DNA from: Eledone cirrhosa
Taxonomy: Eukaryota
Direction of reading: 5' to 3'
Length of the DNA: 64,000 nucleotides
NCBI GenBank assembly: GCA_964016885.1
Contig: OZ024740.1
Span: 31,496,001-31,560,000, forward strand
A model generated the notes under the pieces. That model made no database searches, was not told the origin of the DNA, and saw only the letters and a program-made list of their open reading frames with translations. Position numbers and translations under genes: made by a program. Of this stretch, positions 10,660 through 62,953 are shown one piece after another; position 1 is the first letter of the stretch, and every line of letters begins with the position of its first letter.

Positions 10660-10690
<31 letters not shown>

Positions 10691-25600: not shown

Positions 25601-28600
25601 TTTATATTATAATATGTTTTTCATTAATATTGAGTAGTCTTCTTACTTTTCTTCTTCTTCCTCTATCTCCATCTCCTCTTCCTCACCACCACCACTGCCA
25701 CCACCACCACCACCACTGCCACCGCCACCACCACCACCATCACCACCATTATCATTTAAAGTTTGTTTACCCTGCTAACAAGAGTTTGACTATTGATTAT
25801 ATTTATAATTTGATACATAAGTTTTGAATTAATTATTAATGTACTGGGTAATTGCTGGCCTTGTGCCAAACGTAGAAACAATTATAAGGTGTATCAGCTA
25901 CGACTGTCCATCTTTGTTTCTGGACATAATATCTTTTGGTCTATGTCATTCAATGTATCCTAGGTAGGGTGAAATTTAAAAGAGGTTTGGATGCTATTTC
26001 TAGCAAATGAGCGTCACACACAGGTTTCTTTACTCTCTACAGTTTGATTGTATGTTGAACCTATCTGACTTCAGGGTCGGACGCCATGCTTTGATGCATA
26101 GAGTTAACTTTGCCTTTCATCCTTATGGGGGTCGATAAAATAAAGTACCAGTAATGCACTGGGTAATTGCTGGCCTTGTGCCAAAAGTAGAAACAATTAT
26201 TGAAGTTTGCGATAGCGAGGCTGAATATCCAATTATTTCAAAATTTGTAAAAGGGATTATAAACAAATTTTTTTCTCTTCTAATCAATTAATATGGAACT
26301 TTAATTTGATAAAACATGTAGAAAATAAGAATAAAAATTAGTTGGAAAGGGAAAATAAAAAAAAAATAAAGACATGCGCACTTCCTCAATTACATGCTAC
26401 AAAAACAAATGTTGGTGTTGCCCCCTGAAAAATTTTGAGACAGCCCAAAACACATAGTCTCACTGTGGGTGATAGAGATGCTGAGTTGCTAGAATAGCCA
26501 AGCACCCTTACCAGCATCACCTGATAACTTCAGTACAATGAGCTACCAACAATGACCAGAACTTCATTGTCAGTGACCCAGCTACCAAAAATGCCTTGAA
26601 TGCTACAAGCTGAATTCACTGACAAATTATGGTGTTTCAGTACATTTTTAATCAGTGCACTTAAAATGACCTTTTGTTCAGCTAATGAAAACCTTGTTTC
26701 ATTTAATCAAATCAGCATCTGGTCATATTTTAATGAATTTTACTGTTTCAAATACAATCCATGTATTTCTAAAGCCAATGCAATATTGATTCCTAATTTA
26801 GATACAAGGCCATAAAATTTGGGGGAGGGGAACTTAAGGAGAAGAGAAAGTCAATTATATTAACCCCAGTATTTGACTGGTATTTTATTTTATTGACTCT
26901 GGAAAGATAAAAGGCAAAGTTGAGCTCAGAAAAAATGGATGTTAAACAATGATGATGATGATGATGATGTTGATGAATGTAAAGAGCCAGAACAAATACT
27001 GCAATGACATTTTAACTGACATTCTACATATTGGCTCTAGTGTAATATTAAGAACTAGAATTATTTGTAGTATTGACTAGGTATGTTGCCAATTTTCAAA
27101 GAGGAACCCACACTGTAAAGTGGTTGTGTAGGTGTCATGACAAAAAGCACCCAGTCCACACTGTAAAGTGGTTGTGTAGGTGTCATGACAAAAAGCACCC
27201 AGTCCACACTGTAAAGTGGTTGCGTAGGTGTCATGACAAAAAGCACCCAGTCCACACTGTAAAGTGGTTGTGTAGGTGTCATGACAAAAAGCACCCAGCA
27301 CACACTGTAAAGTGGTTGTGTAGGTGTTATGACTAAAAGGACCCAGTCCACACTGTAAAGTGGTTGTGTAGGTGTCATGACAAAAATCACCCAGTCCACA
27401 CTGTAAAGTGGTTGTGTAGGTGTCATGACAAAAAGCACCCAGCACACACTGTAAAGTGGTTGTGTAGGTGTCATGACAAAAAGCACCCAGCACACACTGT
27501 AAAGTGGTTGTGTAGGTGTCATGACTAAAAGCACCCAGCACACACTGAAAAGTGGTTGTGTAGGTGTCATGACTAAAAGCACCCAGTCCACACTGTAAAG
27601 TGGTTGTGTAGGTGTCATGACAAAAAGCACCCAGCACACACTGTAAAGTGGTTGTGTAGGTGTCATGACTAAAAGCACCCAGTCCACACTGTAAAGTGGT
27701 TGTGTAGGTGTCATGACTAAAAGCACCCAGCACACACTGTAAAGTGGTTGTGTAGGTGTCATGACTAAAAGCACCCAGTCCACACTGTAAAGTGGTTGTG
27801 TAGGTGTCATGACTAAAATCACCCAGTCCACACTGTAAAGTGGTTGTGTAGGTGTCATGACAAAAAGCACCCAGCACACACTGTAAAGTGGTTGTGTAGG
27901 TGTCATGACAAAAAGCACCCAGCACACACTGTAAAGTGGTTGTGTAGGTGTCATGACTAAAAGCACCCAGCACACACTGTAAAGTGGTTGTGTAGGTGTC
28001 ATGACTAAAAGCACCCAGTCCACACTGTAAAGTGGTTGTGTAGGTGTCATGACTAAAATCACCCAGTCCACACTGTAAAGTGGTTGTGTAGGTGTCATGA
28101 CAAAAAGCACCCAGCACACACTGTAAAGTGGTTGTGTAGGTGTCATGACAAAAAGCACCCAGCACACACTGTAAAGTGGTTGTGTAGGTGTCATGACTAA
28201 AAGCACCCAGTCCACACTGTAAAGTGGTTGTGTAGGTGTCATTACTAAAAGCACCTAGGACACACTGTAAAGTGGTTGTGTAGGTGTCATGACAAAAATC
28301 ACCCAGTCCACACTGTAAAGTGGTTGTGTAGGTGTCATGACAAAAAGCACCCAGCACACACTGTAAAGTGGTTGTGTAGGTGTCATGACTAAAAGCACCC
28401 AGCACACACTGTAAAGTGGTTGTGTAGGTGTCATGACTAAAAGCACCCAGTCCACACTGTAAAGTGGTTGTGTAGGTGTCATGACAAAAAGCACCCAGCA
28501 CACACTGTAAAGTGGTTGTGTAGGTGTCATGACAAAAAGCACCCAGTCCACACTGTAAAGTGGTTGTGTAGGTGTCATGACAAAAAGCACCCAGCACACA

Positions 28601-31600
28601 CTGTAAAGTGGTTGTGTAGGTGTCATGACTAAAAACACCCAGTCCACACTGTAAAGTGGTTGTGTAGGTGTCATTACTAAAATCACCCAGTCCACACTGT
28701 AAAGTGGTTGTGTAGGTGTCATGACAAAAAGCACCCAGCACACACTGTAAAGTGGTTGTGTAGGTGTCATGACTAAAAGCACCCAGTCCACACTGTAAAG
28801 TGGTTGTGTAGGTGTCATTACTAAAATCACCCAGCACACACTGTAAAGTGGTTGTGTAGGTGTCATGACTAAAAGCACCCAGCACACACTGTAAAGTGGT
28901 TGTGTAGGTGTCATGACAAAAAGCACCCAGCACACACTGTAAAGTGGTTGTGTAGGTGTCATGACAAAAAGCACCCAGCACACACTGTAAAGTGGTTGTG
29001 TAGGTGTCATGGCAAAAAGCACCCAGCACACACTGTAAAGTGGTTGTGTAGGTGTCATGATAAAAAGCACCCACCACACACTGTAAAGTGGTTGTGTAGG
29101 TGTCATGACTAAAAGCACCCAGCACACACTGTAAAGTGGTTGTGTAGGTGTCATGACAAAAAGCACCCAGTCCACACTGTAAAGTGGTTGTGTAGGTGTC
29201 ATGACTAAAAGCACCCAGCACACACTGTAAAGTGGTTGTGTAGGTGTCATGACTAAAAGCACCCAGCACACACTGTAAAGTGGTTGTGTAGGTGTCATGA
29301 CTAAAAGCACCCAGCACACACTGTAAAGTGGTTGTGTAGGTGTCATGACTAAAAGCACCCAGTCCACACTGTAAAGTGGTTGTGTAGGTGTCATGACTAA
29401 AAGCACCCAGTCCACACTGTAAAGTGGTTGTGTAGGTGTCATGACAAAAAGCACACAGCACACACTGTAAAGTGGTTGTATAGGTGTCATGACAAAAAGC
29501 ACCCAGCACACACTGTAAAGTGGTTGTGTAGGTGTCATGACAAAAAGCACCCAGCACACACTGTAAAGTGGTTGTGTAGGTGTCATGACAAAAAGCACCC
29601 AGCACACACTGTAAAGTGGTTGTGTAGGTGTCATGACTAAAAGCACCCAGCACACACTGTAAAGTGGTTGTGTAGGTGTCATGACTAAAAGCACCCAGTC
29701 CACACTGTAAAGTGGTTGTGTAGGTGTCATGACAAAAAGCACCCAGCACACACTGTAAAGTGGTTGTGTAGGTGTCATGACAAAAAGCACCCAGTCCACA
29801 CTGTAAAGTGGTTGGGTAGGTGTCATGACAAAAAGCACCCAGTCCACACTGTAAAGTGGTTGTGTAGGTGTCATGACAAAAAGCACCCAGCACACACTGT
29901 AAAGTGGTTGTGTAGGTGTCATGACTAAAAACACCCAGTCCACACTGTAAAGTGGTTGTGTAGGTGTCATTACTAAAATCACCCAGTCCACACTGTAAAG
30001 TGGTTGTGTAGGTGTCATGACAAAAAGCACCCAGCACACACTGTAAAGTGGTTGTGTAGGTGTCATGACAAAAAGCACCCAGCACACACTGTAAAGTGGT
30101 TGTGTAGGTGTCATGACTAAAAGCACCCAGCACACACTGTAAAGTGGTTGTGTAGGTGTCATTACTAAAAGCACCCAGTCCACACTGTAAAGTGGTTGTG
30201 TAGGTGTCATGACAAAAAGCACCCAGCACACACTGTAAAGTGGTTGTGTAGGTGTCATGACAAAAAGCACCCAGTCCACACTGTAAAGTGGTTGGGTAGG
30301 TGTCATGACAAAAAGCACCCAGTCCACACTGTAAAGTGGTTGTGTAGGTGTCATGACAAAAAGCACCCAGCACACACTGTAAAGTGGTTGTGTAGGTGTC
30401 ATGACTAAAAACACCCAGTCCACACTGTAAAGTGGTTGTGTAGGTGTCATTACTAAAATCACCCAGTCCACACTGTAAAGTGGTTGTGTAGGTGTCATGA
30501 CAAAAAGCACCCAGCACACACTGTAAAGTGGTTGTGTAGGTGTCATGACAAAAAGCACCCAGCACACACTGTAAAGTGGTTGTGTAGGTGTCATGACTAA
30601 AAGCACCCAGCACACACTGTAAAGTGGTTGTGTAGGTGTCATTACTAAAAGCACCCAGTCCACACTGTAAAGTGGTTGTGTAGGTGTCATGGCAAAAATC
30701 ACCCAGCACACACTGTAAAGTGGTTGTGTAGGTGTCATGACAAAAAGCACCCAGCACACACTGTAAAGTGGTTGTGTAGGTGTCATGACTAAAAGCACCC
30801 AGCACACACTGTAAAGTGGTTGTGTAGGTGTCATGACAAAAAGCACCCAGCACACACTGTAAAGTGGTTGTGTAGGTGTCATGACTAAAAGCACCCACCA
30901 CACACTGTAAAGTGGTTGTGTAGGTGTCATGACTAAAAGCACCCAGTCCACACTGTAAAGTGGTTGTGTAGGTGTCATGACTAAAAGCACCCAGTCCACA
31001 CTGTAAAGTGGTTGTGTAGGTGTCATGACAAAAAGCACCCAGCACACACTGTAAAGTGGTTGTGTAGGTGTCATGACAAAAAGCACCCAGTCCACACTGT
31101 AAAGTGGTTGTGTAGGTGTCATGACAAAAAGCACCCAGTCCACACTGTAAAGTGGTTGTGCAGGTGTCATGACAAAAAGCACCCAGCACACACTGTAAAG
31201 TGGTTGTGTAGGTGTCATGACTAAAAACACCCAGTCCACACTGTTAAGTGGTTGTGTAGGTGTCATTACTAAAATCACCCAGTCCACACTGTAAAGTGGT
31301 TGTGTAGGTGTCATGACAAAAAACACCCAGTCCACACTGTAAAGTGGTTGTGTAGGTGTCATGACTAAAAGCACCCAGCACACACTGTAAACTGGTTGTG
31401 TAGGTGTCATGACTAAAAGCACCCAGCACACACTGTAAAGTGGTTGTGTAGGTGTCATGACTAAAAGCACCCAGTCCACACTGTAAAGTGGTTGTGTAGG
31501 TGTCATTACTAAAATCACCCAGCATACACTGTAAAGTGGTTGTGTAGGTGTCATGACTAAAAGCACCCAGCACACACTGTAAAGTGGTTGTGTAGGTGTC

Positions 31601-34600
31601 ATGACAAAAAGCACCCAGCACACACTGTAAAGTGGTTGTGTAGGTGTCATGACAAAAAGCACCCAGCACACACTGTAAAGTGGTTGTGTAGGTGTCATGG
31701 CAAAAAGCACCCAGCACACACTGTAAAGTGGTTGTGTAGGTGTCATGACAAAAAGCACCCACCACACACTGTAAAGTGGTTGTGTAGGTGTCATGACTAA
31801 AAGCACCCAGCACACACTGTAAAGTGGTTGTGTAGGTGTCATTACTAAAATCACCCAGTCCACACTGTAAAGTGGTTGTGTAGGTGTCATGACAAAAAGC
31901 ACCCAGCACACACTGTAAAGTGGTTGTGTAGGTGTCATGACAAAAAGCACCCAGCACACACTGTAAAGTGGTTGTGTAGGTGTCATGACTAAAAGCACCC
32001 AGCACACACTGTAAAGTGGTTGTGTAGGTGTCATGGCAAAAAGCACCCAGCACACACTGTAAAGTGGTTGTGTAGGTGTCGAGCAAAAAGCACCCAGCAC
32101 ACACTGTAAATGTGGTTGTGTAGGTGTCATGACAAAAAGCACCCAGCACACACTGTAAAGTGGTTGTGTAGGTGTCATGACTAAAAGCACCCAGCACACA
32201 CTGTAAAGTGGTTGTGTAGGTGTCATGACAAAAAGCACCCAGCACACACTGTAAAGTGGTTGTGTAGGTGTCATGACAAAAAGCACCCAGCACACACTGT
32301 AAAGTGGTTGTGTAGGTGTCATGACAAAAAGCACCCAGCACACACTGTAAAGTGGTTGTGTAGGTGTCATGACTAAAAGCACCCAGCACACACTGTAAAG
32401 TGGTTGTGTAGGTGTCATGACAAAAAGAACCCAGTCCACACTGTAAAGTGGTTGTGTAGGTGTCATGACAAAAAGCACCCAGCACACACTGTAAAGTGGT
32501 TGTGTAGGTGTCATGACTAAAAGCACCCAGCACACACTGTAAAGTGGTTGTGTAGGTGTCATGACAAAAAGCACCCAGCACACACTGTAAAGTGGTTGTG
32601 TGGGTGTCATGACAAAAAGCACCCAGCACACACTGTAAAGTGGTTGTGTAGGTGTCATGACAAAAAGCACCCAGCACACACTGTAAAGTGGTTGTGTAGG
32701 TGTCATGACAAAAAGCACCCAGCACACACTGTAAAGTGGTTGTGTAGGTGTCATGACTAAAAGCACCCAGTACACACTGTAAAGTGGTTGTGTAGGTGTC
32801 ATGACTAAAAGCACCCAGCACACACTGTAAAGTGGTTGTGTAGGTGTCATGACAAAAAGCACCCAGCACACACTGTAAAGTGGTTGTGTAGGTGTCATGA
32901 CTAAAAGCACCCAGTCCACACTGTAAAGTGGTTGTGTAGGTGTCATGACTAAAAGCACCCAGTCCACACTGTAAAGTGGTTGTGTTGGTGTCATGACAAA
33001 AAGCACCCAGCACACACTGTAAAGTGGTTGTGTAGGTGTCATGACAAAAAGCACCCAGCACACACTGTAAAGTGGTTGTGTAGGTGTCATGACTAAAAGC
33101 ACCCAGTCCACACTGTAAAGTGGTTGTGTAGGTGTCATGACTAAAAGCACCCAGCACACACTGTAAAGTGGTTGTGTAGGTGTCATGACAAAAAGCACCC
33201 AGCACACACTGTAAAGTGGTTGTGTAGGTGTCATGACTAAAAGCACCCAGTCCACACTGTAAAGTGGTTGTGTAGGTGTCATGACTAAAAGCACCCAGCA
33301 CACACTGTAAAGTGGTTGTGTAGGTGTCATGACTAAAAGCACGCAGCACACACTGTAAAGTGGTTGTGTAGGTGTCATGACTAAAAGCACCCAGCACACA
33401 CTGTAAAGTGGTTGTATAGGTGTCATGACAAAAAGCACCCAGCACACACTGTAAAGTGGTTGTGTAGGTGTCATGACTAAAAGCACCCAGCACACACTGT
33501 AAAGTGGTTGTGTAGGTGTCATGACAAAAAGCACCCAGCACACACTGTAAAGTGGTTGTGTAGGTGTCATGACAAAAAGCACCCAGTCCACACTGTAAAG
33601 TGGTTGTGTAGGTGTCATGACAAAAAGCACCCAGCATACACTGTAAAGTGGTTGTGTAGGTGTCATGACTAAAAGCACCCAGTCCACACTGTAAAGTGGT
33701 TGTGTAGGTGTCATGACTAAAAGCACCCAGCACACACTGTAAAGTGGTTGTGTAGGTGTCATGACTAAAAGCACCCAGTCCACACTGTAAAGTGGTTGTG
33801 TAGGTGTCATGACAAAAAGCACCCAGCACACACTGTAAAGTGGTTGTGTAGGTGTCATGACAAAAAGCACCCAGTCCACACTGTAAAGTGGTTGTGTAGG
33901 TGTCATGACTAAAAGCACCCAGCACACACTGTAAAGTGGTTGTGTAGGTGTCATGACTAAAATCACCCAGCACACACTGTAAAGTGGTTGTGTAGGTGTC
34001 ATGACTAAAAGCACCCAGCACACACTGTAAAGTGGTTGTGTAGGTGTCATGACTAAAAGCACCCAGTCCACACTGTAAAGTGGTTGTGTAGGTGTCATGA
34101 CAAAAAGCACCCAGCACACACTGTAAAGTGGTTGTGTAGGTGTCATGACTAAAAGCACCCAGCACACACTGTAAAGTGGTTGTGTAGGTGTCATGACTAA
34201 AAGCACCCAGTCCGCACTGTAAAGTGGTTGTGTAGGTGTCATGACTAAAAGCACCCAGCACACACTGTAAAGTGGTTGTGTAGGTGTCATGACTAAAAGC
34301 ACCCAGCACACACTGTAAAGTGGTTGTGTAGGTGTCATGACTAAAAGCACCCAGCACACACTGTAAAGTGGTTGTGTAGGTGTCATGACTAAAAGCACCC
34401 AGCACACACTGTAAAGTGGTTGTGTAGGTGTCATGACAAAAAGCACCCAGCACACACTGTAAAGTGGTTGTGTAGGTGTCATGACAAAAAGCACCCAGTC
34501 CACACTGTAAAGTGGTTGTGTAGGTGTCATGACAAAAAGCACCCAGCATACACTGTAAAGTGGTTGTGTAGGTGTCATGACTAAAAGCACCCAGTCCACA

Positions 34601-37600
34601 CTGTAAAGTGGTTGTGTAGGTGTCATGACTAAAAGCACCCAGCACACACTGTAAAGTGGTTGTGTAGGTGTCATGACTAAAAGCACCCAGTCCACACTGT
34701 AAAGTGGTTGTGTAGGTGTCATGACAAAAAGCACCCAGCACACACTGTAAAGTGGTTGTGTAGGTGTCATGACAAAAAGCACCCAGTCCACACTGTAAAG
34801 TGGTTGTGTAGGTGTCATGACTAAAAGCACCCAGCACACACTGTAAAGTGGTTGTGTAGGTGTCATGACAAAAAGCACCCAGCACACACTGTAAAGTGGT
34901 TGTGTAGGTGTCATGACTAAAAGCACCCAGCACACACTGTAAAGTGGTTGTGTAGGTGTCATGACTAAAAGCACCCAGTCCACACTGTAAAGTGGTTGTG
35001 TAGGTGTCATGACAAAAAGCACCCAGCACACACTGTAAAGTGGTTGTGTAGGTGTCATGACTAAAAGCACCCAGCACACACTGTAAAGTGGTTGTGTAGG
35101 TGTCATGACTAAAAGCACCCAGTCCACACTGTAAAGTGGTTGTGTAGGTGTCATGACTAAAAGCACCCAGCACACACTGTAAAGTGGTTGTGTAGGTGTC
35201 ATGACTAAAAGCACCCAGCACACACTGTAAAGTGGTTGTGTAGGTGTCATGACTAAAAGCACCCAGCACACACTGTAAAGTGGTTGTGTAGGTGTCATGA
35301 CTAAAAGCACCCAGTCCACACTGTAAAGTGGTTGTGTAGGTGTCATGACTAAAAGCACCCAGCACACACTGTAAAGTGATTGTGTAGGTGTCATGACTAA
35401 AAGCACCCAGTCCACACTGTAAAGTGGTTGTGTAGGTGTCATGACAAAAAGCACCCAGCACACACTGTAAAGTGGTTGTGTAGGTGTCATGACTAAAAGC
35501 ACCCAGCACACACTGTAAAGTGGTTGTGTAGGTGTCATGACTAAAAGCACCCAGTCCACACTGTAAAGTGGTTGTGTAGGTGTCATGACAAAAAGCACCC
35601 AGCACACACTGTAAAGTGGTTGTGTAGGTGTCATGACTAAAAGCACCCAGTCCACACTGTAAAGTGGTTGTGTAGGTGTCAAGACTAAAAGCACCCAGCA
35701 CACACTGTAAAGTGGTTGTGTAGGTGTCATGACAAAAAGCACCCAGTCCACACTGTAAAGTGGTTGTGTAGGTGTCATGACAAAAAGCACCCAGCACACA
35801 CTGTAAAGTGGTTGTGTAGGTGTCATGACTAAAAACACCCAGCACACACTGTAAAGTGGTTGTGTAGGTGTCATGACAAAAAGCACCCAGTCCACACTGT
35901 AAAGTGGTTGTGTAGGTGTCATTACTAAAATCACCCAGCACACACTGTAAAGTGGTTGTGTAGGTGTCATGGCAAAAAGCACCCAGCACACACTGTAAAG
36001 TGGTTGTGTAGGTGTCATGACTAAAAGCACCCAGCACACACTGTAAAGTGGTTGTGTAGGTGTCATGACAAAAAGCACCCAGCACACACTGTAAAGTGGT
36101 TGTGTAGGTGTCATGACTAAAAGCACCCAGCACACACTGTAAAGTGGTTGTGTAGGTGTCATGACAAAAAGCACCCAGCACACACTGTAAAGTGGTTGTG
36201 TAGGTGTCATGACTAAAAGCACCCAGCACACACTGTAAAGTGGTTGTGTAGGTGTCATGACTAAAAGCACCCAGCACACACTGTAAAGTGGTTGTGTAGG
36301 TGTCATGACTAAAAGCACCCAGCACACACTGTAAAGTGGTTGTGTAGGTGTCATGACTAAAAGCACCCAGCACACACTGTAAAGTGGTTGTGTAGGTGTC
36401 ATGACTAAAATCACCCAGTCCACACTGTAAAGTGGTTGTGTAGGTGTCATGACTAAAAGCACCCAGTCCACACTGTAAAGTGGTTGTGTAGGTGTCATGA
36501 CAAAAAGCACCCAGCACACACTGTAAAGTGGTTGTGTAGGTGTCATGACAAAAAGCACCCAGTCCACACTGTAAAGTGGTTGTGTAGGTGTCATGACAAA
36601 AAGCACCCAGTCCACACTGTAAAGTGGTTGTGCAGGTGTCATGACAAAAAGCACCCAGCACACACTGTAAAGTGGTTGTGTAGGTGTCATGACTAAAAAC
36701 ACCCAGTCCACACTGCAAAGTGGTTGTGTAGGTGTCATGACAAAAAGCACCCAGCACACACTGTAAAGTGGTTGTGTAGGTGTCATGACTAAAAGCACCC
36801 AGTCCACACTGTAAAGTGGTTGTGTAGGTGTCATGACTAAAAGCACCCAGCACACACTGTAAAGTGGTTGTGTAGGTGTCATTACTAAAATCACCCAGTC
36901 CACACTGTAAAGTGGTTGTGTAGGTGTCATGACAAAAAGCACCCAGCACACACTGTAAAGTGGTTGTGTAGGTGTCATGACTAAAAGCACCCAGTCCACA
37001 CTGTAAAGTGGTTGTGTAGGTGTCATGACTAAAAGCACCCAGCACACACTGTAAAGTGGTTGTGTAGGTGTCATTACTAAAATCACCCAGCACACACTGT
37101 AAAGTGGTTGTGTAGGTGTCATGACAAAAAGCACCCAGCACACACTGTAAAGTGGTTGTGTAGGTGTCATGACAAAAAGCACCCAGCACACACTGTAAAG
37201 TGGTTGTGTAGGTGTCATGACAAAAAGCACCCAGCACACACTGTAAAGTGGTTGTGTAGGTGTCATGGCAAAAAGCACCCAGCACACACTGTAAAGTGGT
37301 TGTGTAGGTGTCATGACAAAAAGCACCCAGCACACACTGTAAAGTGGTTGTGTAGGTGTCATGACAAAAAGCACCCAGCACACACTGTAAAGTGGTTGTG
37401 TAGGTGTCATGACAAAAAGCACCCAGCACACACTGTAAAGTGGTTGTGTAGGTGTCATGACTAAAAGCACCCAGCACACACTGTAAAGTGGTTGTGTAGG
37501 TGTCATGACAAAAAGCACCCAGCACACACTGTAAAGTGGTTGTGTAGGTGTCATGACTAAAAGCACCCAGCACACACTGTAAAGTGGTTGTGTAGGTGTC

Positions 37601-40600
37601 ATGACTAAAAGCACGCAGCACACACTGTAAAGTGGTTGTGTAGGTGTCATGACTAAAAGCACCCAGCACACACTGTAAAGTGGTTGTATAGGTGTCATGA
37701 CAAAAAGCACCCAGCACACACTGTAAAGTGGTTGTGTAGGTGTCATGACTAAAAGCACCCAGCACACACTGTAAAGTGGTTGTGTAGGTGTCATGACAAA
37801 AAGCACCCAGCACACACTGTAAAGTGGTTGTGTAGGTGTCATGACAAAAAGCACCCAGTCCACACTGTAAAGTGGTTGTGTAGGTGTCATGACAAAAAGC
37901 ACCCAGCATACACTGTAAAGTGGTTGTGTAGGTGTCATGACTAAAAGCACCCAGTCCACACTGTAAAGTGGTTGTGTAGGTGTCATGACTAAAAGCACCC
38001 AGCACACACTGTAAAGTGGTTGTGTAGGTGTCATGACTAAAAGCACCCAGTCCACACTGTAAAGTGGTTGTGTAGGTGTCATGACAAAAAGCACCCAGCA
38101 CACACTGTAAAGTGGTTGTGTAGGTGTCATGACAAAAAGCACCCAGTCCACACTGTAAAGTGGTTGTGTAGGTGTCATGACTAAAAGCACCCAGCACACA
38201 CTGTAAAGTGGTTGTGTAGGTGTCATGACTAAAATCACCCAGCACACACTGTAAAGTGGTTGTGTAGGTGTCATGACTAAAAGCACCCAGCACACACTGT
38301 AAAGTGGTTGTGTAGGTGTCATGACTAAAAGCACCCAGTCCACACTGTAAAGTGGTTGTGTAGGTGTCATGACAAAAAGCACCCAGCACACACTGTAAAG
38401 TGGTTGTGTAGGTGTCATGACTAAAAGCACCCAGCACACACTGTAAAGTGGTTGTGTAGGTGTCATGACTAAAAGCACCCAGTCCGCACTGTAAAGTGGT
38501 TGTGTAGGTGTCATGACTAAAAGCACCCAGCACACACTGTAAAGTGGTTGTGTAGGTGTCATGACTAAAAGCACCCAGCACACACTGTAAAGTGGTTGTG
38601 TAGGTGTCATGACTAAAAGCACCCAGCACACACTGTAAAGTGGTTGTGTAGGTGTCATGACTAAAAGCACCCAGCACACACTGTAAAGTGGTTGTGTAGG
38701 TGTCATGACAAAAAGCACCCAGCACACACTGTAAAGTGGTTGTGTAGGTGTCATGACAAAAAGCACCCAGTCCACACTGTAAAGTGGTTGTGTAGGTGTC
38801 ATGACAAAAAGCACCCAGCATACACTGTAAAGTGGTTGTGTAGGTGTCATGACTAAAAGCACCCAGTCCACACTGTAAAGTGGTTGTGTAGGTGTCATGA
38901 CTAAAAGCACCCAGCACACACTGTAAAGTGGTTGTGTAGGTGTCATGACTAAAAGCACCCAGTCCACACTGTAAAGTGGTTGTGTAGGTGTCATGACAAA
39001 AAGCACCCAGCACACACTGTAAAGTGGTTGTGTAGGTGTCATGACAAAAAGCACCCAGTCCACACTGTAAAGTGGTTGTGTAGGTGTCATGACTAAAAGC
39101 ACCCAGCACACACTGTAAAGTGGTTGTGTAGGTGTCATGACAAAAAGCACCCAGCACACACTGTAAAGTGGTTGTGTAGGTGTCATGACTAAAAGCACCC
39201 AGCACACACTGTAAAGTGGTTGTGTAGGTGTCATGACTAAAAGCACCCAGTCCACACTGTAAAGTGGTTGTGTAGGTGTCATGACAAAAAGCACCCAGCA
39301 CACACTGTAAAGTGGTTGTGTAGGTGTCATGACTAAAAGCACCCAGCACACACTGTAAAGTGGTTGTGTAGGTGTCATGACTAAAAGCACCCAGTCCACA
39401 CTGTAAAGTGGTTGTGTAGGTGTCATGACTAAAAGCACCCAGCACACACTGTAAAGTGGTTGTGTAGGTGTCATGACTAAAAGCACCCAGCACACACTGT
39501 AAAGTGGTTGTGTAGGTGTCATGACTAAAAGCACCCAGCACACACTGTAAAGTGGTTGTGTAGGTGTCATGACTAAAAGCACCCAGTCCACACTGTAAAG
39601 TGGTTGTGTAGGTGTCATGACTAAAAGCACCCAGCACACACTGTAAAGTGATTGTGTAGGTGTCATGACTAAAAGCACCCAGTCCACACTGTAAAGTGGT
39701 TGTGTAGGTGTCATGACAAAAAGCACCCAGCACACACTGTAAAGTGGTTGTGTAGGTGTCATGACTAAAAGCACCCAGCACACACTGTAAAGTGGTTGTG
39801 TAGGTGTCATGACTAAAAGCACCCAGTCCACACTGTAAAGTGGTTGTGTAGGTGTCATGACAAAAAGCACCCAGCACACACTGTAAAGTGGTTGTGTAGG
39901 TGTCATGACTAAAAGCACCCAGTCCACACTGTAAAGTGGTTGTGTAGGTGTCAAGACTAAAAGCACCCAGCACACACTGTAAAGTGGTTGTGTAGGTGTC
40001 ATGACAAAAAGCACCCAGTCCACACTGTAAAGTGGTTGTGTAGGTGTCATGACAAAAAGCACCCAGCACACACTGTAAAGTGGTTGTGTAGGTGTCATGA
40101 CTAAAAACACCCAGCACACACTGTAAAGTGGTTGTGTAGGTGTCATGACAAAAAGCACCCAGTCCACACTGTAAAGTGGTTGTGTAGGTGTCATTACTAA
40201 AATCACCCAGCACACACTGTAAAGTGGTTGTGTAGGTGTCATGGCAAAAAGCACCCAGCACACACTGTAAAGTGGTTGTGTAGGTGTCATGACTAAAAGC
40301 ACCCAGCACACACTGTAAAGTGGTTGTGTAGGTGTCATGACAAAAAGCACCCAGCACACACTGTAAAGTGGTTGTGTAGGTGTCATGACTAAAAGCACCC
40401 AGCACACACTGTAAAGTGGTTGTGTAGGTGTCATGACAAAAAGCACCCAGCACACACTGTAAAGTGGTTGTGTAGGTGTCATGACTAAAAGCACCCAGCA
40501 CACACTGTAAAGTGGTTGTGTAGGTGTCATGACTAAAAGCACCCAGCACACACTGTAAAGTGGTTGTGTAGGTGTCATGACTAAAAGCACCCAGCACACA

Positions 40601-43600
40601 CTGTAAAGTGGTTGTGTAGGTGTCATGACTAAAAGCACCCAGCACACACTGTAAAGTGGTTGTGTAGGTGTCATGACTAAAATCACCCAGTCCACACTGT
40701 AAAGTGGTTGTGTAGGTGTCATGACTAAAAGCACCCAGTCCACACTGTAAAGTGGTTGTGTAGGTGTCATGACAAAAAGCACCCAGCACACACTGTAAAG
40801 TGGTTGTGTAGGTGTCATGACAAAAAGCACCCAGTCCACACTGTAAAGTGGTTGTGTAGGTGTCATGACAAAAAGCACCCAGTCCACACTGTAAAGTGGT
40901 TGTGCAGGTGTCATGACAAAAAGCACCCAGCACACACTGTAAAGTGGTTGTGTAGGTGTCATGACTAAAAACACCCAGTCCACACTGCAAAGTGGTTGTG
41001 TAGGTGTCATGACAAAAAGCACCCAGCACACACTGTAAAGTGGTTGTGTAGGTGTCATGACTAAAAGCACCCAGTCCACACTGTAAAGTGGTTGTGTAGG
41101 TGTCATGACTAAAAGCACCCAGCACACACTGTAAAGTGGTTGTGTAGGTGTCATTACTAAAATCACCCAGTCCACACTGTAAAGTGGTTGTGTAGGTGTC
41201 ATGACAAAAAGCACCCAGCACACACTGTAAAGTGGTTGTGTAGGTGTCATGACTAAAAGCACCCAGTCCACACTGTAAAGTGGTTGTGTAGGTGTCATGA
41301 CTAAAAGCACCCAGCACACACTGTAAAGTGGTTGTGTAGGTGTCATTACTAAAATCACCCAGCACACACTGTAAAGTGGTTGTGTAGGTGTCATGACAAA
41401 AAGCACCCAGCACACACTGTAAAGTGGTTGTGTAGGTGTCATGACAAAAAGCACCCAGCACACACTGTAAAGTGGTTGTGTAGGTGTCATGACAAAAAGC
41501 ACCCAGCACACACTGTAAAGTGGTTGTGTAGGTGTCATGGCAAAAAGCACCCAGCACACACTGTAAAGTGGTTGTGTAGGTGTCATGACAAAAAGCACCC
41601 AGCACACACTGTAAAGTGGTTGTGTAGGTGTCATGACAAAAAGCACCCAGCACACACTGTAAAGTGGTTGTGTAGGTGTCATGACAAAAAGCACCCAGCA
41701 CACACTGTAAAGTGGTTGTGTAGGTGTCATGACTAAAAGCACCCAGCACACACTGTAAAGTGGTTGTGTAGGTGTCATGACAAAAAGCACCCAGCACACA
41801 CTGTAAAGTGGTTGTGTAGGTGTCATGACTAAAAACACCCAGTCCACACTGTAAAGTGGTTGTGTAGGTGTCATGACTAAAAGCACCCAGCACACACTGT
41901 AAAGTGGTTGTGTAGGTGTCATGACTAAAAGCACCCAGCACACACTGTAAAGTGGTTGTGTAGGTGTCATGACTAAAAGCACCCAGCACACACTGTAAAG
42001 TGGTTGTGTAGGTGTCATGACTAAAAGCACCCAGCACACACTGTAAAGTGGTTGTGTAGGTGTCATGACTAAAAGCACCCAGCACACACTGTAAAGTGGT
42101 TGTGTAGGTGTCATGACAAAAAGCACCCAGCACACACTGTAAAGTGGTTGTGTAGGTGTCATGACAAAAATCACCCAGCACACACTGTAAAGTGGTTGTG
42201 TAGGTGTCATGACAAAAAGCACCCAGCACACACTGTAAAGTGGTTGTGTAGGTGTCATGACTAAAAGCACCCAGCACACACTGTAAAGTGGTTGTGTAGG
42301 TGTCATGACAAAAAGCACCCAGCACACACTGTAAAGTGGTTGTGTAGGTGTCATGACAAAAAGCACCCAGCACACACTGTAAAGTGGTTGTGTAGGTGTC
42401 ATGGCAAAAAGCACCCAGCACACACTGTAAAGTGGTTGTGTAGGTGTCATGACTAAAAGCACCCACCACACACTGTAAAGTGGTTGTGTAGATGTCATGA
42501 CTAAAAGCACCCAGCACACACTGTAAAGTGGTTGTGTAGGTGTCATTTCAAAAAGCACCCAGCACACACTGTAAAGTGGTTGTGTAGGTGTCATGACAAA
42601 AAGCACCCACCACACACTGTAAAGTGGTTGTGTAGGTGTCATGACTAAAAGCACCCAGCACACACTGTAAAGTGGTTGTGTAGGTGTCATGACAAAAAGC
42701 ACCCAGCACACACTGTAAAGTGGTTGTGTAGGTGTCATGACTAAAAGCCCCCAGCACACACTGTAAAGTGGTTGTGTAGGTGTCATGACTAAAAGCACCC
42801 AGCACACACTGTAAAGTGGTTGTGTAGGTGTCATGACAAAAAGCACCCAGCACACACTGTAAAGTGGTTGTGTAGGTGTCATGACAAAAAGCACCCAGCA
42901 CACACTGTAAAGTGGTTGTGTAGGTGTCATGACTAAAAGCACCCACCACACACTGTAAAGTGGTTGTGTAGGTGTCATGACTAAAAGCACCCAGTCCACA
43001 CTGTAAAGTGGTTGTGTAGGTGTCATGACTAAAAGCACCCAGTCCACACTGTAAAGTGGTTGTGTAGGTGTCATGACAAAAAGCACCCAGCACACACTGT
43101 AAAGTGGTTGTGTAGGTGTCATGACAAAAAGCACCCAGTCCACACTGTAAAGTGGTTGTGTAGGTGTCATGACAAAAAGCACCCAGTCCACACTGTAAAG
43201 TGGTTGTGCAGGTGTCATGACAAAAAGCACCCAGCACACACTGTAAAGTGGTTGTGTAGGTGTCATGACTAAAAACACCCAGTCCACACTGTAAAGTGGT
43301 TGTGTAGGTGTCATTACTAAAATCACCCAGTCCACACTGTAAAGTGGTTGTGTAGGTGTCATGACAAAAAACACCCAGTCCACACTGTAAAGTGGTTGTG
43401 TAGGTGTCATGACTAAAAGCACCCAGCACACACTGTAAAGTGGTTGTGTAGGTGTCATGACTAAAAGCACCCAGCACACACTGTAAAGTGGTTGTGTAGG
43501 TGTCATGACTAAAAGCACCCAGCACACACTGTAAAGTGGTTGTGTAGCTGTCATTACTAAAATCACCCAGCATACACTGTAAAGTGGTTGTGTAGGTGTC

Positions 43601-46600
43601 ATGACTAAAAGCACCCAGCACACACTGTAAAGTGGTTGTGTAGGTGTCATGACAAAAAGCACCCAGCACACACTGTAAAGTGGTTGTGTAGGTCTCATGA
43701 CAAAAAGCACCCAGCACACACTGTAAAGTGGTTGTGTAGGTGTCATGGCAAAAAGCACCCAGCACACACTGTAAAGTGGTTGTGTAGGTGTCATGACAAA
43801 AAGCACCCACCACACACTGTAAAGTGGTTGTGTAGGTGTCATGACTAAAAGCACCCAGCACACACTGTAAAGTGGTTGTGTAGGTGTCATTACTAAAATC
43901 ACCCAGTCCACACTGTAAAGTGGTTGTGTAGGTGTCATGACAAAAAGCACCCAGCACACACTGTAAAGTGGTTGTGTAGGTGTCATGACAAAAAGCACCC
44001 AGCACACACTGTAAAGTGGTTGTGTAGGTGTCATGACTAAAAGCACCCAGCACACACTGTAAAGTGGTTGTGTAGGTGTCATGGCAAAAAGCACCCAGCA
44101 CACACTGTAAAGTGGTTGTGTAGGTGTCATGCAAAAAGCACCCAGCACACACTGTAAATGTGGTTGTGTAGGTGTCATGACAAAAAGCACCCAGCACACA
44201 CTGTAAAGTGGTTGTGTAGGTGTCATGACTAAAAGCACCCAGCACACACTGTAAAGTGGTTGTGTAGGTGTCATGACAAAAAGCACCCAGCACACACTGT
44301 AAAGTGGTTGTGTAGGTGTCATGACAAAAAGCACCCAGCACACACTGTAAAGTGGTTGTGTAGGTGTCATGACAAAAAGCACCCAGCACACACTGTAAAG
44401 TGGTTGTGTAGGTGTCATGACTAAAAGCACCCAGCACACACTGTAAAGTGGTTGTGTAGGTGTCATGACAAAAAGCACCCAGTCCACACTGTAAAGTGGT
44501 TGTGTAGGTGTCATGACAAAAAGCACCCAGCACACACTGTAAAGTGGTTGTGTAGGTGTCATGACAAAAAGCACCCAGCACACACTGTAAAGTGGTTGTG
44601 TAGGTGTCATGACTAAAAGCACCCAGCACACACTGTAAAGTGGTTGTGTAGGTGTCATGACAAAAAGCACCCAGCACACACTGTAAAGTGGTTGTGTGGG
44701 TGTCATGACAAAAAGCACCCAGCACACACTGTAAAGTGGTTGTGTAGGTGTCATGACAAAAAGCACCCAGCACACACTGTAAAGTGGTTGTGTAGGTGTC
44801 ATGACAAAAAGCACCCAGCACACACTGTAAAGTGGTTGTGTAGGTGTCATGACTAAAAGCACCCAGCACACACTGTAAAGTGGTTGTGTAGGTGTCATGA
44901 CTAAAAGCACCCAGCACACACTGTAAAGTGGTTGTGTAGGTGTCATAACAAAAAGCACCCAGCACACACTGTAAAGTGGTTGTGTAGGTGTCATGACTAA
45001 AAGCACCCAGTCCACACTGTAAAGTGGTTGTGTAGGTGTCATGACTAAAAGCACCCAGTCCACACTGTAAAGTGGTTGTGTAGGTGTCATGACAAAAAGC
45101 ACCCAGCACACACTGTAAAGTGGTTGTGTAGGTGTCATGACAAAAAGCACCCAGCACACACTGTAAAGTGGTTGTGTAGGTGTCATGACTAAAAGCACCC
45201 AGTCCACACTGTAAAGTGGTTGTGTAGGTGTCATGACTAAAAGCACCCAGCACACACTGTAAAGTGGTTGTGTAGGTGTCATGACAAAAAGCACCCAGCA
45301 CACACTGTAAAGTGGTTGTGTAGGTGTCATGACTAAAAGCACCCAGTCCACACTGTAAAGTGGTTGTGTAGGTGTCATGACTAAAAGCACCCAGTCCACA
45401 CTGTAAAGTGGTTGTGTAGGTGTCATGACTAAAAGCACCCAGCACACACTGTAAAGTGGTTGTGTAGGTGTCATGACTAAAAGCACCCAGTCCACACTGT
45501 AAAGTGGTTGTGTAGGTGTCATGACTAAAAGCACCCAGTCCACACTGTAAAGTGGTTGTGTAGGTGTCATGACTAAAAGCACCCAGCACACACTGTAAAG
45601 TGGTTGTGTAGGTGTCATGACTAAAAGCACCCAGTCCACACTGTAAAGTGGTTGTGTAGGTGTCATGACTAAAAGCACCCAGCACACACTGTAAAGTGGT
45701 TGTGTAGGTGTCATGACTAAAAGCACCCAGCACACACTGTAAAGTGGTTGTGTAGGTGTCATGACTAAAAGCACCCAGCACACACTGTAAAGTGGTTGTG
45801 TAGGTGTCATGACAAAAAGCACCCAGCACACACTGTAAAGTGGTTGTGTAGGTGTCATGACTAAAAGCACCCAGCACACACTGTAAAGTGGTTGTGTAGG
45901 TGTCATGACAAAAAGCACCCAGCACACACTGTAAAGTGGTTGTGTAGGTGTCATGACAAAAAGCACCCAGTCCACACTGTAAAGTGGTTGTGTAGGTGTC
46001 ATGACAAAAAGCACCCAGCATACACTGTAAAGTGGTTGTGTAGGTGTCATGACTAAAAGCACCCAGTCCACACTGTAAAGTGGTTGTGTAGGTGTCATGA
46101 CTAAAAGCACCCAGCACACACTGTAAAGTGGTTGTGTAGGTGTCATGACTAAAAGCACCCAGTCCACACTGTAAAGTGGTTGTGTAGGTGTCATGACAAA
46201 AAGCACCCAGCACACACTGTAAAGTGGTTGTGTAGGTGTCATGACAAAAAGCACCCAGTCCACACTGTAAAGTGGTTGTGTAGGTGTCATGACTAAAAGC
46301 ACCCAGCACACACTGTAAAGTGGTTGTGTAGGTGTCATGACTAAAAGCACCCAGCACACACTGTAAAGTGGTTGTGTAGGTGTCATGACAAAAAGCACCC
46401 AGCACACACTGTAAAGTGGTTGTGTAGGTGTCATGACTAAAAGCACCCAGCACACACTGTAAAGTGGTTGTGTAGGTGTCATGACTAAAAGCACCCAGTC
46501 CACACTGTAAAGTGGTTGTGTAGGTGTCATGACAAAAAGCACCCAGCACACACTGTAAAGTGGTTGTGTAGGTGTCATGACTAAAAGCACCCAGTCCACA

Positions 46601-49600
46601 CTGTAAAGTGGTTGTGTAGGTGTCATGACTAAAAGCACCCAGCACACACTGTAAAGTGGTTGTGTAGGTGTCATGACTAAAAGCACCCAGCACACACTGT
46701 AAAGTGGTTGTGTAGGTGTCATGACTAAAAGCACCCAGCACACACTGTAAAGTGGTTGTGTAGGTGTCATGACTAAAAGCACCCAGTCCACACTGTAAAG
46801 TGGTTGTGTAGGTGTCATGACTAAAAGCACCCAGCACACACTGTAAAGTGGTTGTGTAGGTGTCATGACTAAAAGCACCCAGTCCACACTGTAAAGTGGT
46901 TGTGTAGGTGTCATGACAAAAAGCACCCAGCACACACTGTAAAGTGGTTGTGTAGGTGTCATGACTAAAAGCACCCAGCACACACTGTAAAGTGGTTGTG
47001 TAGGTGTCATGACTAAAAGCACCCAGTCCACACTGTAAAGTGGTTGTGTAGGTGTCATGACAAAAAGCACCCAGCACACACTGTAAAGTGGTTGTGTAGG
47101 TGTCATGACTAAAAGCACCCAGTCCACACTGTAAAGTGGTTGTGTAGGTGTCATGACTAAAAGCACCCAGCACACACTGTAAAGTGGTTGTGTAGGTGTC
47201 ATGACAAAAAGCACCCAGTCCACACTGTAAAGTGGTTGTGTAGGTGTCATGACAAAAAGCACCCAGCACACACTGTAAAGTGGTTGTGTAGGTGTCATGA
47301 CTAAAAACACCCAGCACACACTGTAAAGTGGTTGTGTAGGTGTCATGACAAAAAGCACCCAGTCCACACTGTAAAGTGGTTGTGTAGGTGTCATTACTAA
47401 AATCACCCAGCACACACTGTAAAGTGGTTGTGTAGGTGTCATGGCAAAAAGCACCCAGCACACACTGTAAAGTGGTTGTGTAGGTGTCATGACAAAAAGC
47501 ACCCAGCACACACTGTAAAGTGGTTGTGTAGGTGTCATTACTAAAATCACCCAGTCCACACTGTAAAGTGGTTGTGTAGGTGTCATGACAAAAAGCACCC
47601 AGCACACACTGTAAAGTGGTTGTGTAGGTGTCATGACTAAAAGCACCCAGTCCACACTGTAAAGTGGTTGTGTAGGTGTCATGACTAAAAGCACCCAGCA
47701 CACACTGTAAAGTGGTTGTGTAGGTGTCATTACTAAAATCACCCAGCACACACTGTAAAGTGGTTGTGTAGGTGTCATGACTAAAAGCACCCAGCACACA
47801 CTGTAAAGTGGTTGTGTAGGTGTCATGACAAAAAGCACCCAGCACACACTGTAAAGTGGTTGTGTAGGTGTCATGACAAAAAGCACCCAGCACACACTGT
47901 AAAGTGGTTGTGTAGGTGTCATGGCAAAAAGCACCCAGCACACACTGTAAAGTGGTTGTGTAGGTGTCATGACAAAAAGCACCCAGCACACACTGTAAAG
48001 TGGTTGTGTAGGTGTCATGACAAAAAGCACCCAGCACACACTGTAAAGTGGTTGTGTAGGTGTCATGACAAAAAGCACCCAGCACACACTGTAAAGTGGT
48101 TGTGTAGGTGTCATGACTAAAAGCAACCCAGCACACACTGTAAAGTGGTTGTGTAGGTGTCATGACAAAAAGCACCCAGCACACACTGTAAAGTGGTTGT
48201 GTAGGTGTCATGACTAAAAACACCCAGTCCACACTGTAAAGTGGTTATGTAGGTGTCATGACTAAAAGCACCCAGCACACACTGTAAAGTGGTTGTGTAG
48301 GTGTCATGCTAAAAAGCACCCAGCACACACTGTAAAGTGTTGTGTAGTGTCATGACTAAAAGCACCCAGCACACACTGTAAAGTGGTTGTGTAGGTGTCA
48401 TGACTAAAAAGCACCCAGCACACACTGTAAAGTGGTTGTGTAGGTGTCATGACTAAAAGCACCCAGCACACACTGTAAAGTGGTTGTGTAGGTGTCATGA
48501 CAAAAAGCACCCAGCACACACTGTAAAGTGGTTGTGTAGGTGTCATGACTAAAAAGCACCCAGCACACACTGTAAAGTGGTTGTGTAGGTGTCATGACAA
48601 AAAGCACCCAGCACACACTGTAAAGTGGTTGTGTAGGTGTCATGACTAAAAGCACCCAGCACACACTGTAAACTGGTTGTGTAGGTGTCATGACAAAAAG
48701 CACCCAGCACACACTGTAAAGTGGTTGTGTAGGTGTCATGACAAAAAAGCACCCAGCACACACTGTAAAGTGGTTGTGTAGGTGTCATGACTAAAAGCAC
48801 CCAGCACACCACTGTAAAGTGGTTGTGTAGGTGTCATGACTAAAAAGCACCCAGCACACACTGTAAAGTGGTTGTGTAGGTGTCATGACTAAAAGCACCC
48901 AGCACACACTGTAAAGTGGTTGTGTAGGTGTCATGACTAAAAGCACCCAGTCCCACACTGTAAAGTGGTTGTGTAGGTGTCATGACAAAAAGCACCCAGT
49001 CCACACTGTAAATGTGGTTATGTAGGTGTCATGACAAAAAGCACCCAGTCCACACTGTAAATGTGGTTGTGTAGGTGTCATGACAAAAAGCACCCAGTCC
49101 ACACTGTAAATGTGGTTGGCATTAGGAAGGGCATCCAGCCATAGAAATCTAGTCAGAAACAGTCCTATAATAGCAAGACATGGTCACCTGACCCAACTGG
49201 CCTCTAATGGGACAACCTGTCTAACCCATGCTACCATGAAAAATGGACGTTAAATGATGGTGATGATGAGGAGGAGTTGGTACTCTACTGAATCAACTGT
49301 GGAACATTACAGGTACTGATGTTTGTTTAATCGGCTTTGGGAGATAAAAGGTAAAATATGTTTGGTTTGGTATGATAACTTGACAGTTTCCCTTAACCCT
49401 TTAGCATTCACATTACTCTATATTCACTATTGTATTTTCGCAGTAAATGTTTTATCTTACATAATATCGAATCTATGTGATTTTGATATTATTTATTTTG
49501 AGAACAATACCTTAACATTGGTATAAGTGGTTAGTTAGGACCGATTTGAACAGAAAGAGGTGAGAAAATTCTGGCTGGATATGGCCGGTTTAAATGCTAA

Positions 49601-58600: not shown

Positions 58601-60580
58601 GAGGGTTTTGGCTGTTTCAGTACTCCAGCTTCACCACTACCCATGGTAACGCTGTGAGTGTTTTGGGGTGCCTTAAAAGGTTTCGAAGGGCAACGCCAGC
58701 ATTCCTTGCTGTATCGTGTAATTGGGGAATGTGTATATGTTCTTTTAAATAATAATAATAATGAAATTATTGTGTACAGTGCTCAGGTGCACTACAACTC
58801 ATCAAAGGTGCATGTATAGTACATAAAATAATATACAAATGTCAGGGAAGTGAATAGTGTATCAGTCATGATATACATGTGTGCGTGTGTATGGAGGGGG
58901 AATATTAGGTGTAGTGTTGGCGAATCTCAGGAAGCATGGAGGTTTTAAAGGATGCAGTATCCCAACAGCTAATAACTGATGCAGGTAGTTTGTTCCATGC
59001 TTCAGCAACTATGAGCGTGAAAAAAATGTTTCCAAAAATCATGGGAGCTGTGCTGTTTTCTGACTTTGTTGGCATGCCCACGTGTTAGACACATGGAATT
59101 TTATTCTTTCTCATTCATTTTTATTCTTATTGGCCACTTGCTTTGTCTATCAAAACTGATAAATCTTAAATTTAACATGTTAAATTCAATATGTTAGATA
59201 TCAAGTTTTTAAAAATATTTTCATATCTGTTTTAGATGGAATGATATTCTGGAGTGGTCTTGGACTTGGATGTTTCAATTTTGATTGGTTGATTCCAACA
59301 TTTATCGGTTACCATCACACAAAACATCCTTCATCAGGTACAATTCTTTCTTGTGGCAGCTTTAATTCTATCTCTTTTCACTATACAGAAGATCAATGTT
59401 GTATAGATAAAAGAAGAATATAAACCAACTAAACTGACTTAGCAGCAACTTATTTTATTGATAACAAAATGATAAAAAGCAAATACAACATAAATTCAAT
59501 TTATAACACTGATGTACTTAAATTATGAAGTAGGTTAACATTAACAACAGGAGCAGCTTTACCAAGGATTCCTGCACATACTCTCTGGTAAAATACACTT
59601 TATCAAAAATAATCCTAAAACTCTCAGTAAACCAGGTAAATACCCTACATCAGAGTATTTACCAGGTTTAGCTATTTGATTTACTGAAATTTTTATTAAT
59701 ATTTTAGTTAAGGATTAGGGTTAGGGTTGGGGTTAGGGTTAGGGTTACGGTTAGGCTCCTCTTAACCAAATATACACCCCAATCCACTACCCATACCCTA
59801 TCCTCCCACTCCCACTAACACCACCCTCTCTCTGTAAAGTTGGTACCACGACATCCAGTCCAAATGAGATCGAGATCGTGTAGGTGTCACGACAAAAAAA
59901 CACACACGGTCCACGCTGTAATGTAGCCGTGTGGGTAACACGGTAAAGAGTTCCCAGTTCCACACTGTAAATCTGGTTGGTGTTAGGAAGGGCATCAAGC
60001 CGTAGAAAACCTGCCAGATAGTGCTATATGAGCTAGACACGGTCACCCGACCAGCGTTGCCTCAAGTGGGACAACTCCCGTCTAACCGATGCTAGCGTGG
60101 AAGATAGACATTAAACGATGATGATGATGATGATATATTGCTGTGGGGAAAAAACCCTGAATACCCCCGCATAACTAAAAGTGGACTAGGTGAAAAGTGT
60201 ATAAATAAGAACTGAAGTGAACTGTCAGGGAAACTGTGTGTGTGGAGTCTCATTGTAGTCTCTTGTTGGTAGTTCAGAATTACGGATCGTTGAGTACCTT
60301 GGGTGTTATTCTTGTTTAGTACAGATATACAAAACAGGTGTGTCACACCATTATAACTATATATACATATATATAACAAAGAGGGTGTGGTAAGATACCA
60401 GGTGGACCATAACGCACAAGTGTACTCAATATTTAGGGTAGTAGAGTGGGTAATAGGAAAAGAGTCAGGAATCTGACGCCTGAGCTCCGGTCATATCAAC
60501 AGCTAGATCCGAACCAGGTTCGGATCTAGCTGTTGAAATGGCCGGAGCTCAGGCGTCGTCGGGGTCCTGATTCTTTTCCT

Positions 60581-60611
<31 letters not shown>

Positions 60612-61912: not shown

Positions 61913-62347
61913 GTAAGTAATCTGGAAAACTATTGTTTTTATCTATGTAAAATAAATTATTGAATCATTTATACTGCTTTCTCATTAAAAAAAATGTAAT
62001 TGGTATGAATTTGGTGGCTTTATCAAAAAATTCTGTATGAGTGTGTGTGTGTATATATATATCTCCTTATAATATATAACCAGCAATTTCTCTGTCTGTC
62101 TGTCCGACAGTGGAAACACGTGCGCGCGTGGTTGCTATCTCTCTCTCTCTCTCCAGCTATCCCTTTCTTTTAGTCTGTCTGTTTCTCTCACTCTCACTCT
62201 TTCTCTTTGTAACACACTAACATTCCTCCCCTCTATCGCTGTGACGAATGGGGAGATGGAGGAGGAGGAGGAGGAGAGAGTCACTTTGTCACTTCACCTC
62301 TGCCTTTCTTTCTCTCCCCTCTCACTCCCTCATTACGTACAGACATT

Positions 62348-62914: not shown

Positions 62915-62953
<39 letters not shown>

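Follow-up and report, generated by a model that had tools for sequence, protein, structure and literature searches.

Probable growth of 48-bp tandem arrays from the 3' untranslated repeat of an RTE-like LINE in Eledone cirrhosa: a 458-unit array in a likely LRRK2-like intron

A 64,000-bp stretch of the genome of the octopod Eledone cirrhosa (assembly GCA_964016885.1, contig OZ024740.1, positions 31,496,001 to 31,560,000, forward strand; hereafter the window, with positions counted from its first base) contains a long tandem array of a 48-bp unit that runs directly into the 3' tail of an RTE-like long interspersed element (LINE), in what is likely an intron of an LRRK2-like gene. This arrangement raises the question of where the units came from, and whether they multiplied during the insertion of the element or afterwards. 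We consider it probable that the array is the 3' untranslated region (UTR) repeat of a 5'-truncated copy of this LINE, with the tail still joined to it, and that it grew in place after insertion from one to three units to 458 through duplication at the DNA level. A first-pass annotation, made by a model from the letters of the window, had proposed a LINE family with a built-in variable number tandem repeat that expands after or during insertion, and its claims are taken up below together with the results that bear on them.

The array and the features that belong to it are as follows.

27108-49118, plus strand: 48-bp tandem array, 458 units, 61 variants, 5' end cut within a unit
49119-49270, plus strand: RTE-like LINE 3' tail with (GAT)n end, 4.4% off the majority of its subfamily sample
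33253-41834, plus strand: block duplicated in tandem without a difference over 4,310 bp, at an offset of 4,272 bp (89 units)
30700-32850, plus strand: product of an older block duplication, differing at 18 of 2,151 bp from its partner 12,048 bp further downstream
27101-27105 (left copy) and 49268-49272 (right copy), plus strand: candidate 5-bp target-site duplication, possibly due to chance

Tandem Repeats Finder reports 458.4 copies at 27109-49118, with 95% matches and 0% indels, and splitting the array at its anchor yields 458 units, of which 444 are 48 bp long, with 61 distinct sequences. The last unit continues directly into the tail of ~150 bp, which matches four other copies in the window over its full length at 76-79% identity and a fifth at 71%. 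The array interior is free of N. The unbroken run of about 458 copies into the tail described by the first-pass annotation was confirmed, as was a left edge that falls within a unit (2 bases before the anchor), with no open reading frame (ORF) of the element and no UTR match found in the 2 kb upstream. The sole gap in the window, 200 N at 49607-49806, begins 340 bp to the right of the tail.

The unit is also present in other copies of the LINE in the window.

430-1646, plus strand: second copy with ORF end (430-495), UTR, 17-unit array (672-1494) and tail
10672-13106, minus strand: young 5'-truncated copy with a 709-aa frame (reverse transcriptase and PHD), UTR with two units, and tail
50778-51817, plus strand: truncated copy with ORF end, UTR with ~2 units, and tail
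57287-57560, minus strand: short copy with ~2 units and tail, no ORF
59805-60138, plus strand: short copy with a UTR piece, ~2 units and tail, no ORF

All four short copies, which had been named as carrying two or three diverged units, have ~1.8-2.2 units plus a terminal part-unit each; an ORF lies upstream in two of them (10977-13106 and 50778-51425) and none is present at 57453 and 59870. The copy at 10672-13106 has relatives at 96-98% identity throughout the genome, and its frame (10977-13106) matches RVT_1 (E 1e-31) and has a PHD-like finger. The copy at 430-1646, absent from the first-pass annotation, is an intermediate stage, with 17.5 units of 46-48 bp that are preceded by the ORF end and UTR and followed by the tail.

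Unit numbers in ordinary copies across the genome (3.0 Gb, 1,796 contigs) were determined with tail-only queries, which carry no bias for unit number. Young relatives (94-99% identity, n = 29) have a median of 2.1 units, with at least 3.5 units in two copies and 19 units in one; some young relatives with an intact UTR have a single unit. The 29 copies with tails closest to that of the window array (90-93%, an older subfamily) have a median of 1.7 units, with at least 3.5 units in six and at least 10 in three, and pooling of both subfamilies gives at least 10 units in 4 of 58 copies. A query consisting of ORF end and UTR found ~2 units in all 30 loci fetched, a count biased by the query. The proposal of a LINE family with two or three units built into its 3' UTR therefore holds, given the two tail-only medians: the family UTR carries ~2 units and a part-unit before the tail, most copies have zero to three units, and a minority have tens to hundreds. 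The monomer is thus a short tandem in the 3' UTR of ordinary copies, as expected of a satellite derived from the UTR of a transposable element. In a random sample of 39 evenly spaced 10-kb stretches (389.6 kb in total), we found 18 full tails, 16 of them with short tracts, and two arrays of at least 10 units; scaled to the genome, this corresponds to ~138,000 tails (82,000-219,000) and ~15,000 arrays of at least 10 units (1,900-56,000). Unit-like DNA amounted to 3,762 bases of the sample (~1%), a figure to which single units of a shorter repeat also contribute. This repeat, frequent in the genome (8 in 389.6 kb), has one unit and just the first ~44 bp of the tail in common with the LINE, occurs at six of the loci fetched (L041, L046, L053, L062, L063 and L073) as well as in random stretches, and is probably a short interspersed element (SINE) that shares part of the LINE 3' region.

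With regard to the carrier, the closest database proteins to the LINE frame are mostly 900-1,100 aa long, combine PF03372 and PF00078 (APE endonuclease and reverse transcriptase), in many cases with PF00628, and show ~50% identity. Genomic copies align to residues 32-1047 of P0002, including the endonuclease part, in broken pieces; no intact full-length copy was present among 8 loci. The RTE clade is characterized by a single ORF of ~1,000-1,100 aa with APE endonuclease and reverse transcriptase. RTE elements also end, at the 3' side, in short tandem tri- to pentamers instead of poly(A) (PMC2887409), and the carrier shares this trait, with a (GAT)n end in the window copies and in most of the 58 tail matches. 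We refer to the carrier as RTE-like, a label that reflects architecture (RVT_1 in the frame, APE endonuclease in relatives, truncated 5' ends), the (GAT)n tail and general knowledge of the clade.

The window locus is one of many and not a special event, as large arrays of 16.3, 19.0, 20.7, 24.6 and 38.8 kb occur at five other places and arrays are spread over many contigs. A unit-only query gave 2,502 candidates, of which 37 were scored, yielding 34 distinct arrays that were each read to the 3' end; 29 of these 34 end in the tail, four lack any tail, and one (19 kb, C2:12.83 Mb) keeps only its last ~50 bp. Among arrays of at least 10 units met by chance in the window, flanks and random stretches (incidental arrays), three of six carry the tail, and the targeted figure may therefore be high. 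Anchoring on the tail, for which the first-pass annotation had proposed a genome-wide check, is thus usual but not constant; most large arrays adjoin the tail, with 29 of 34 ending in it, and the outcome that would have spoken against that annotation did not occur. Tailed arrays cover a range of 4, 9, 17, 19, 26, 49, 157, 339, 431, 458, 513 and 809 units, a continuous series still joined to element sequence, which is again as expected of a UTR-derived satellite. Arrays of 49 and 157 units (L072 and L076) keep UTR, tail and the ORF end, and a 24.6-kb array of 513 units (C2:389.75-389.78 Mb) has both original ends, with UTR-matching sequence on the left and the tail on the right.

The variants within arrays bear on the timing of growth. 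Across 39 arrays, the distance between units is 0.072 within and 0.162 between arrays, and in 35 of these 39 arrays at least 75% of units are private, being absent from all other arrays sampled. Variation in the unit is greatest at two dinucleotides that toggle between CG, TG and CA, which is a mark of methyl-CpG decay, and an individual array often carries one decayed state almost throughout (in the window array, TG in 456 and 431 of the 458 units). Young copy L145, with a tail 0.7% off the majority, has 19 units, of which the first and last are of the family type, while its interior consists of multiplied CpG-decay variants; its units are of its own young-subfamily type. The window array is made of nested block duplications of different ages: its longest identical run is 89 units, compared with at most 8 in shuffles, and older block duplicates (the pair listed above and another with 18 differences in 1,901 bases) differ by 0.8-0.9%, with the tail 4.4% from the subfamily majority. 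Identical runs also exceeded those in an array's own shuffles for 13 of 16 other long arrays and did not for three. In 26 arrays, the distance to the array majority is roughly doubled at the edges (0.08, versus 0.037 for units of the interior); diverged edge units are an expectation of established theory on unequal exchange. At a rate of 0.0036 per million years (PMC13282606), which is that of another species, and with conversion ignored, the 4.4% divergence of the tail (137 bp) suggests, as a rough estimate, that the element inserted ~12 million years ago; the block duplications would then be ~1 million years old or younger.

A sequence of events compatible with these observations can be proposed. 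Target-primed reverse transcription would begin at the (GAT)n end, with the units lying ~150 bp inside, so that even the shortest truncated copies would deliver units and the element would act as an efficient seeder (~140,000 tails). Slipped replication or repair between adjacent units would then provide the first few extra copies, and unequal exchange or repair-driven duplication would multiply blocks of tens to hundreds of units, copying post-insertion mutations, CpG decay among them. Later deletion may have stripped the tail or the 5' part from some arrays.

Arrays could instead have arrived long, if units were gained during insertion because reverse transcriptase slipped on the RNA template or because a master copy was already long. 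Template slippage has been proposed for moth RTE-borne microsatellites (PMC2887409), the 5' end of most arrays falls within a unit, which truncation in a long template would also produce, and the very young L145 is already at 19 units; however, slippage recopies only the two or three variants of the parent, while the window array has 61 variants in nested blocks of different ages. In addition, variants are not common to different arrays, 27 of 29 young copies have fewer than 3.5 units, and arrays of 22-39 kb are far longer than the ~3.2-kb coding length of relatives. We regard growth at insertion as quite improbable, although slippage at that step may be the source of the first few extra units; of the alternatives "after or during insertion" left by the first-pass annotation, private variants, nested blocks and multiplied CpG decay support the former, and the latter found no support. 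Transfer of arrays between dead copies at the DNA level, with the UTR repeat as a homology handle for ectopic conversion or circle re-insertion and with tail-less arrays as the transfers, is opposed by the observations that the majority unit varies by array, that most units are private and that L145 units match its own young subfamily. The eight tail-less arrays (five targeted, three incidental) and the ~140,000 homologous handles speak for such transfer, and our comparison between arrays covers 39 of perhaps 15,000, so that donors could be missed; we nevertheless judge it improbable. That the array length is largely an assembly artefact appears highly improbable. A stretch of 4,310 bp is duplicated without a single difference, and 10 of the 14 off-length units lie within the last 1 kb of the array, 0.5 kb from the gap, a clustering that suggests a weaker consensus there. 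The exact 4,310-bp block may represent either a very recent duplication or an assembly duplicate, and this 89-unit block alone may well be an assembly error. Its removal would still leave ~369 units, though, other duplicated blocks differ by ~0.9%, and five other loci have arrays of 16-39 kb that contain no gap and carry variants of their own; furthermore, a pair of 47- and 49-bp variants recurs 12,048 bp apart, which, together with the ~0.9% block differences, requires a real history.

Several points weigh against growth in place from a tailed LINE copy, the reading that we prefer. The window array is the least private of those compared, with 47% of its units unique, in part because its unit served as query for the other arrays. 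Five of 34 targeted and three of six incidental arrays lack a full tail, for four of the five tail-less targeted arrays the 1.9-4 kb read past the array contained no tail, and loss of the tail through deletion is assumed. Neither an empty site nor a clear target-site duplication was seen; a search for such duplications at 30 arrays gave matches of 3-11 bp at varied offsets, which, with no control, is not decisive. Expanded copies are more numerous in the older subfamily, but not significantly so (6 of 29 versus 2 of 29 with at least 3.5 units, p = 0.25), array lengths rest on a single assembly, and the DNA process that copies the units cannot be read from the sequence.

Some candidate patterns were set aside. 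CpG decay creating a palindrome that drives growth was dropped, as long arrays occur with CG, CA and TG states and the query favoured TG. The 5' break of arrays falls within 11 bases of the anchor in 21 of 42 cases; we do not claim a hot spot, with ~7 of these 21 keeping UTR. In a tree of the tails, array-bearing tails fall on long branches in several groups and short copies in others, and the length of 137 bp together with biased sampling rules out a claim about subfamilies. An array/flank junction common to species (27022-27126) was also considered; a single contig with another species label (run X4) matched 27038-27126 with 2 differences and continued past its end, which hints at such a junction, and it was not counted because it aligns over ~20 letters on the array side, where 31 were needed. 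Folding gave z scores of about -1.6 to -3.1 for unit pairs and 0.2 for the array's tail, with shuffles a poor control for tandem DNA, and Rfam gave no match.

The window system is real and genome-wide, and most likely neutral and post-insertional; it represents, in a LINE, a process already known in plants from long terminal repeat (LTR) elements. Its closest known counterpart is the set of 3' UTR tandem repeats of Ogre LTR retrotransposons, namely PisTR-A of pea and nine satellites of Lathyrus sativus (PMC7004042; PMC9659126). In both systems a short tandem in a retroelement 3' UTR is spread by transposition and occasionally forms long arrays, with all stages visible. The carrier here, in contrast, is an animal non-LTR LINE and not a Tat/Ogre LTR element, so that the system works like Ogre without being a member of that group; its units adjoin the priming end, and truncated copies hence also carry them. 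Long Ogre-derived arrays concentrate in primary constrictions; those described here lie on many chromosomes, with one in a probable intron. RTE-type LINEs that seed tandem repeats from the 3' end are also represented by the RTE-borne microsatellite families of Lepidoptera (PMC2887409) and by octopus RTE-2_OV, with its "microsatellite" 3' UTR (PMC9115989); the repeats in those cases are simple, lie at the extreme end or close to it, and have been attributed to slippage while the element retrotransposes, whereas the present unit, a 48-mer, is internal, with a unique tail of ~140 bp after it, and forms arrays of up to 39 kb. Four RTE-2_OV primers had no match with up to 3 mismatches in the window or in loci L001-L110, and identity of the carrier with RTE-2_OV, compared through primers alone, is unlikely. 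LINE-derived satellites include the cetacean common satellite (L1 3' UTR), chicken HinfI (CR1) and Drosophila 18HT (HeT-A) (PMC9659126). These likewise have a monomer from a LINE 3' region, but each is one satellite family with a LINE-like monomer, whereas here many separate arrays are attached to their own element and have their own variants. Element-internal repeats that expand after insertion are also found outside LINEs, as in the human SVA element, a non-autonomous composite element with an internal VNTR. Further examples are the internal tandem repeats of Drosophila virilis Tetris and the central repeats of DINE/Helitron elements (PMC4079207; PMC9659126), and all of these differ from the present system in that their carriers are DNA transposons or, for SVA, non-autonomous. 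No report of such a LINE or octopus system was found in the literature searched, with subscription papers and Repbase and Dfam entries outside its scope; the accessible text of the 2026 O. vulgaris repeat annotation (PMC13282606) makes no mention of such arrays, and its repeat library may already include this consensus.

We are inclined, if only slightly, to regard this octopod LINE family as a genome-wide satellite factory, with ~140,000 two-unit seeds and ~15,000 (95% range 2,000-56,000) independent arrays of 10 to more than 800 units (~1% of the genome for all units), that needs only a few million years to swell introns in conserved genes, LRRK2 among them, and offers replicated, clocked satellite births, probably along with a large hidden polymorphism in gene length. 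If this is true, thousands of replicated and clocked experiments on satellite birth would be available, as each array keeps a datable tail. The birth of satellites from a few tandem units, and the genomic settings that permit it, have so far been argued from single cases, and the Lathyrus study called element-dispersed arrays a natural experiment (PMC7004042). One seed at ~1e5 places, each marked by age, would make the expansion rate measurable against age, unit identity, methylation, recombination and transcription. There is also a bearing on octopod intron and genome size, as well as on assembly and the annotation of repeats, in which such arrays would become separated from the LINE that they belong to; the principle is already known from plants.

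A few observations concern individual copies and flanks. At L004 (G000:C3:244.61 Mb), a tailed 4-unit copy is, by eye, seemingly inserted in the coding region of a similar LINE copy, the frame of which resumes beyond it, and at L003 two unrelated short tandem arrays (~30-bp units) adjoin a 6-unit copy in its upstream flank. At G000:C15:35.866-35.874 Mb (L062/L183), only 220 bp separate a tailed 33-unit array from a tail-less 134-unit array that faces it and has a shortened unit. In the window, another high-copy short repeat (26780-27040), 140 bp to the left of the array, contains a piece of the LINE tail ~45 bp in length (26931-26968). By eye, 23138-23515 and 24536-24952 appear to be leftovers of other mobile elements, presumably a LINE-like frame and a mariner-like transposase frame.

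With regard to the host gene, one exon was identified upstream of the array.

23868-23996, plus strand: putative ARM-type exon of an LRRK2-like host gene, supported by splice sites and ARM-clan look-alikes

This 129-bp exon has canonical AG/GT splice sites, resembles ARM-clan proteins including ARM_LRRK2 clusters (score 0.96), and has a 76%-identical database fragment. A domain scan beyond the window (77 of 84 candidate frames, to 80 kb past the window end) found LRR (four frames), Roc and COR-A exons in order on the same strand, 17-61 kb past the window end, all below Pfam cut-offs as single exons; the best PDB match of the Roc exon is LRRK2. ARM, LRR, Roc and COR is the domain order of LRRK2, and the occurrence of this order on one strand is as expected of a ROCO kinase. 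The host gene of the first-pass annotation is thereby supported, while the intron is inferred from domain order, because the stretch from the array to the end of the window (49270-64000) yielded no identified exon; Pfam and PDB scans of exon candidates in the window were uninformative. An intronic position in an LRRK2-like gene is thus likely for the array, which is most likely neutral intron filler, with no function implied. Word and representative searches for a full-length host protein (entries of up to 2,000 aa) returned only a 93-aa fragment or nothing, and a search of the genome for the ARM_LRRK2 family with a strict filter gave no match. Three further COR-A matches (G000:C2:173.65 Mb, C7:85.08 Mb and C11:10.27 Mb) point to other ROCO genes in this genome.

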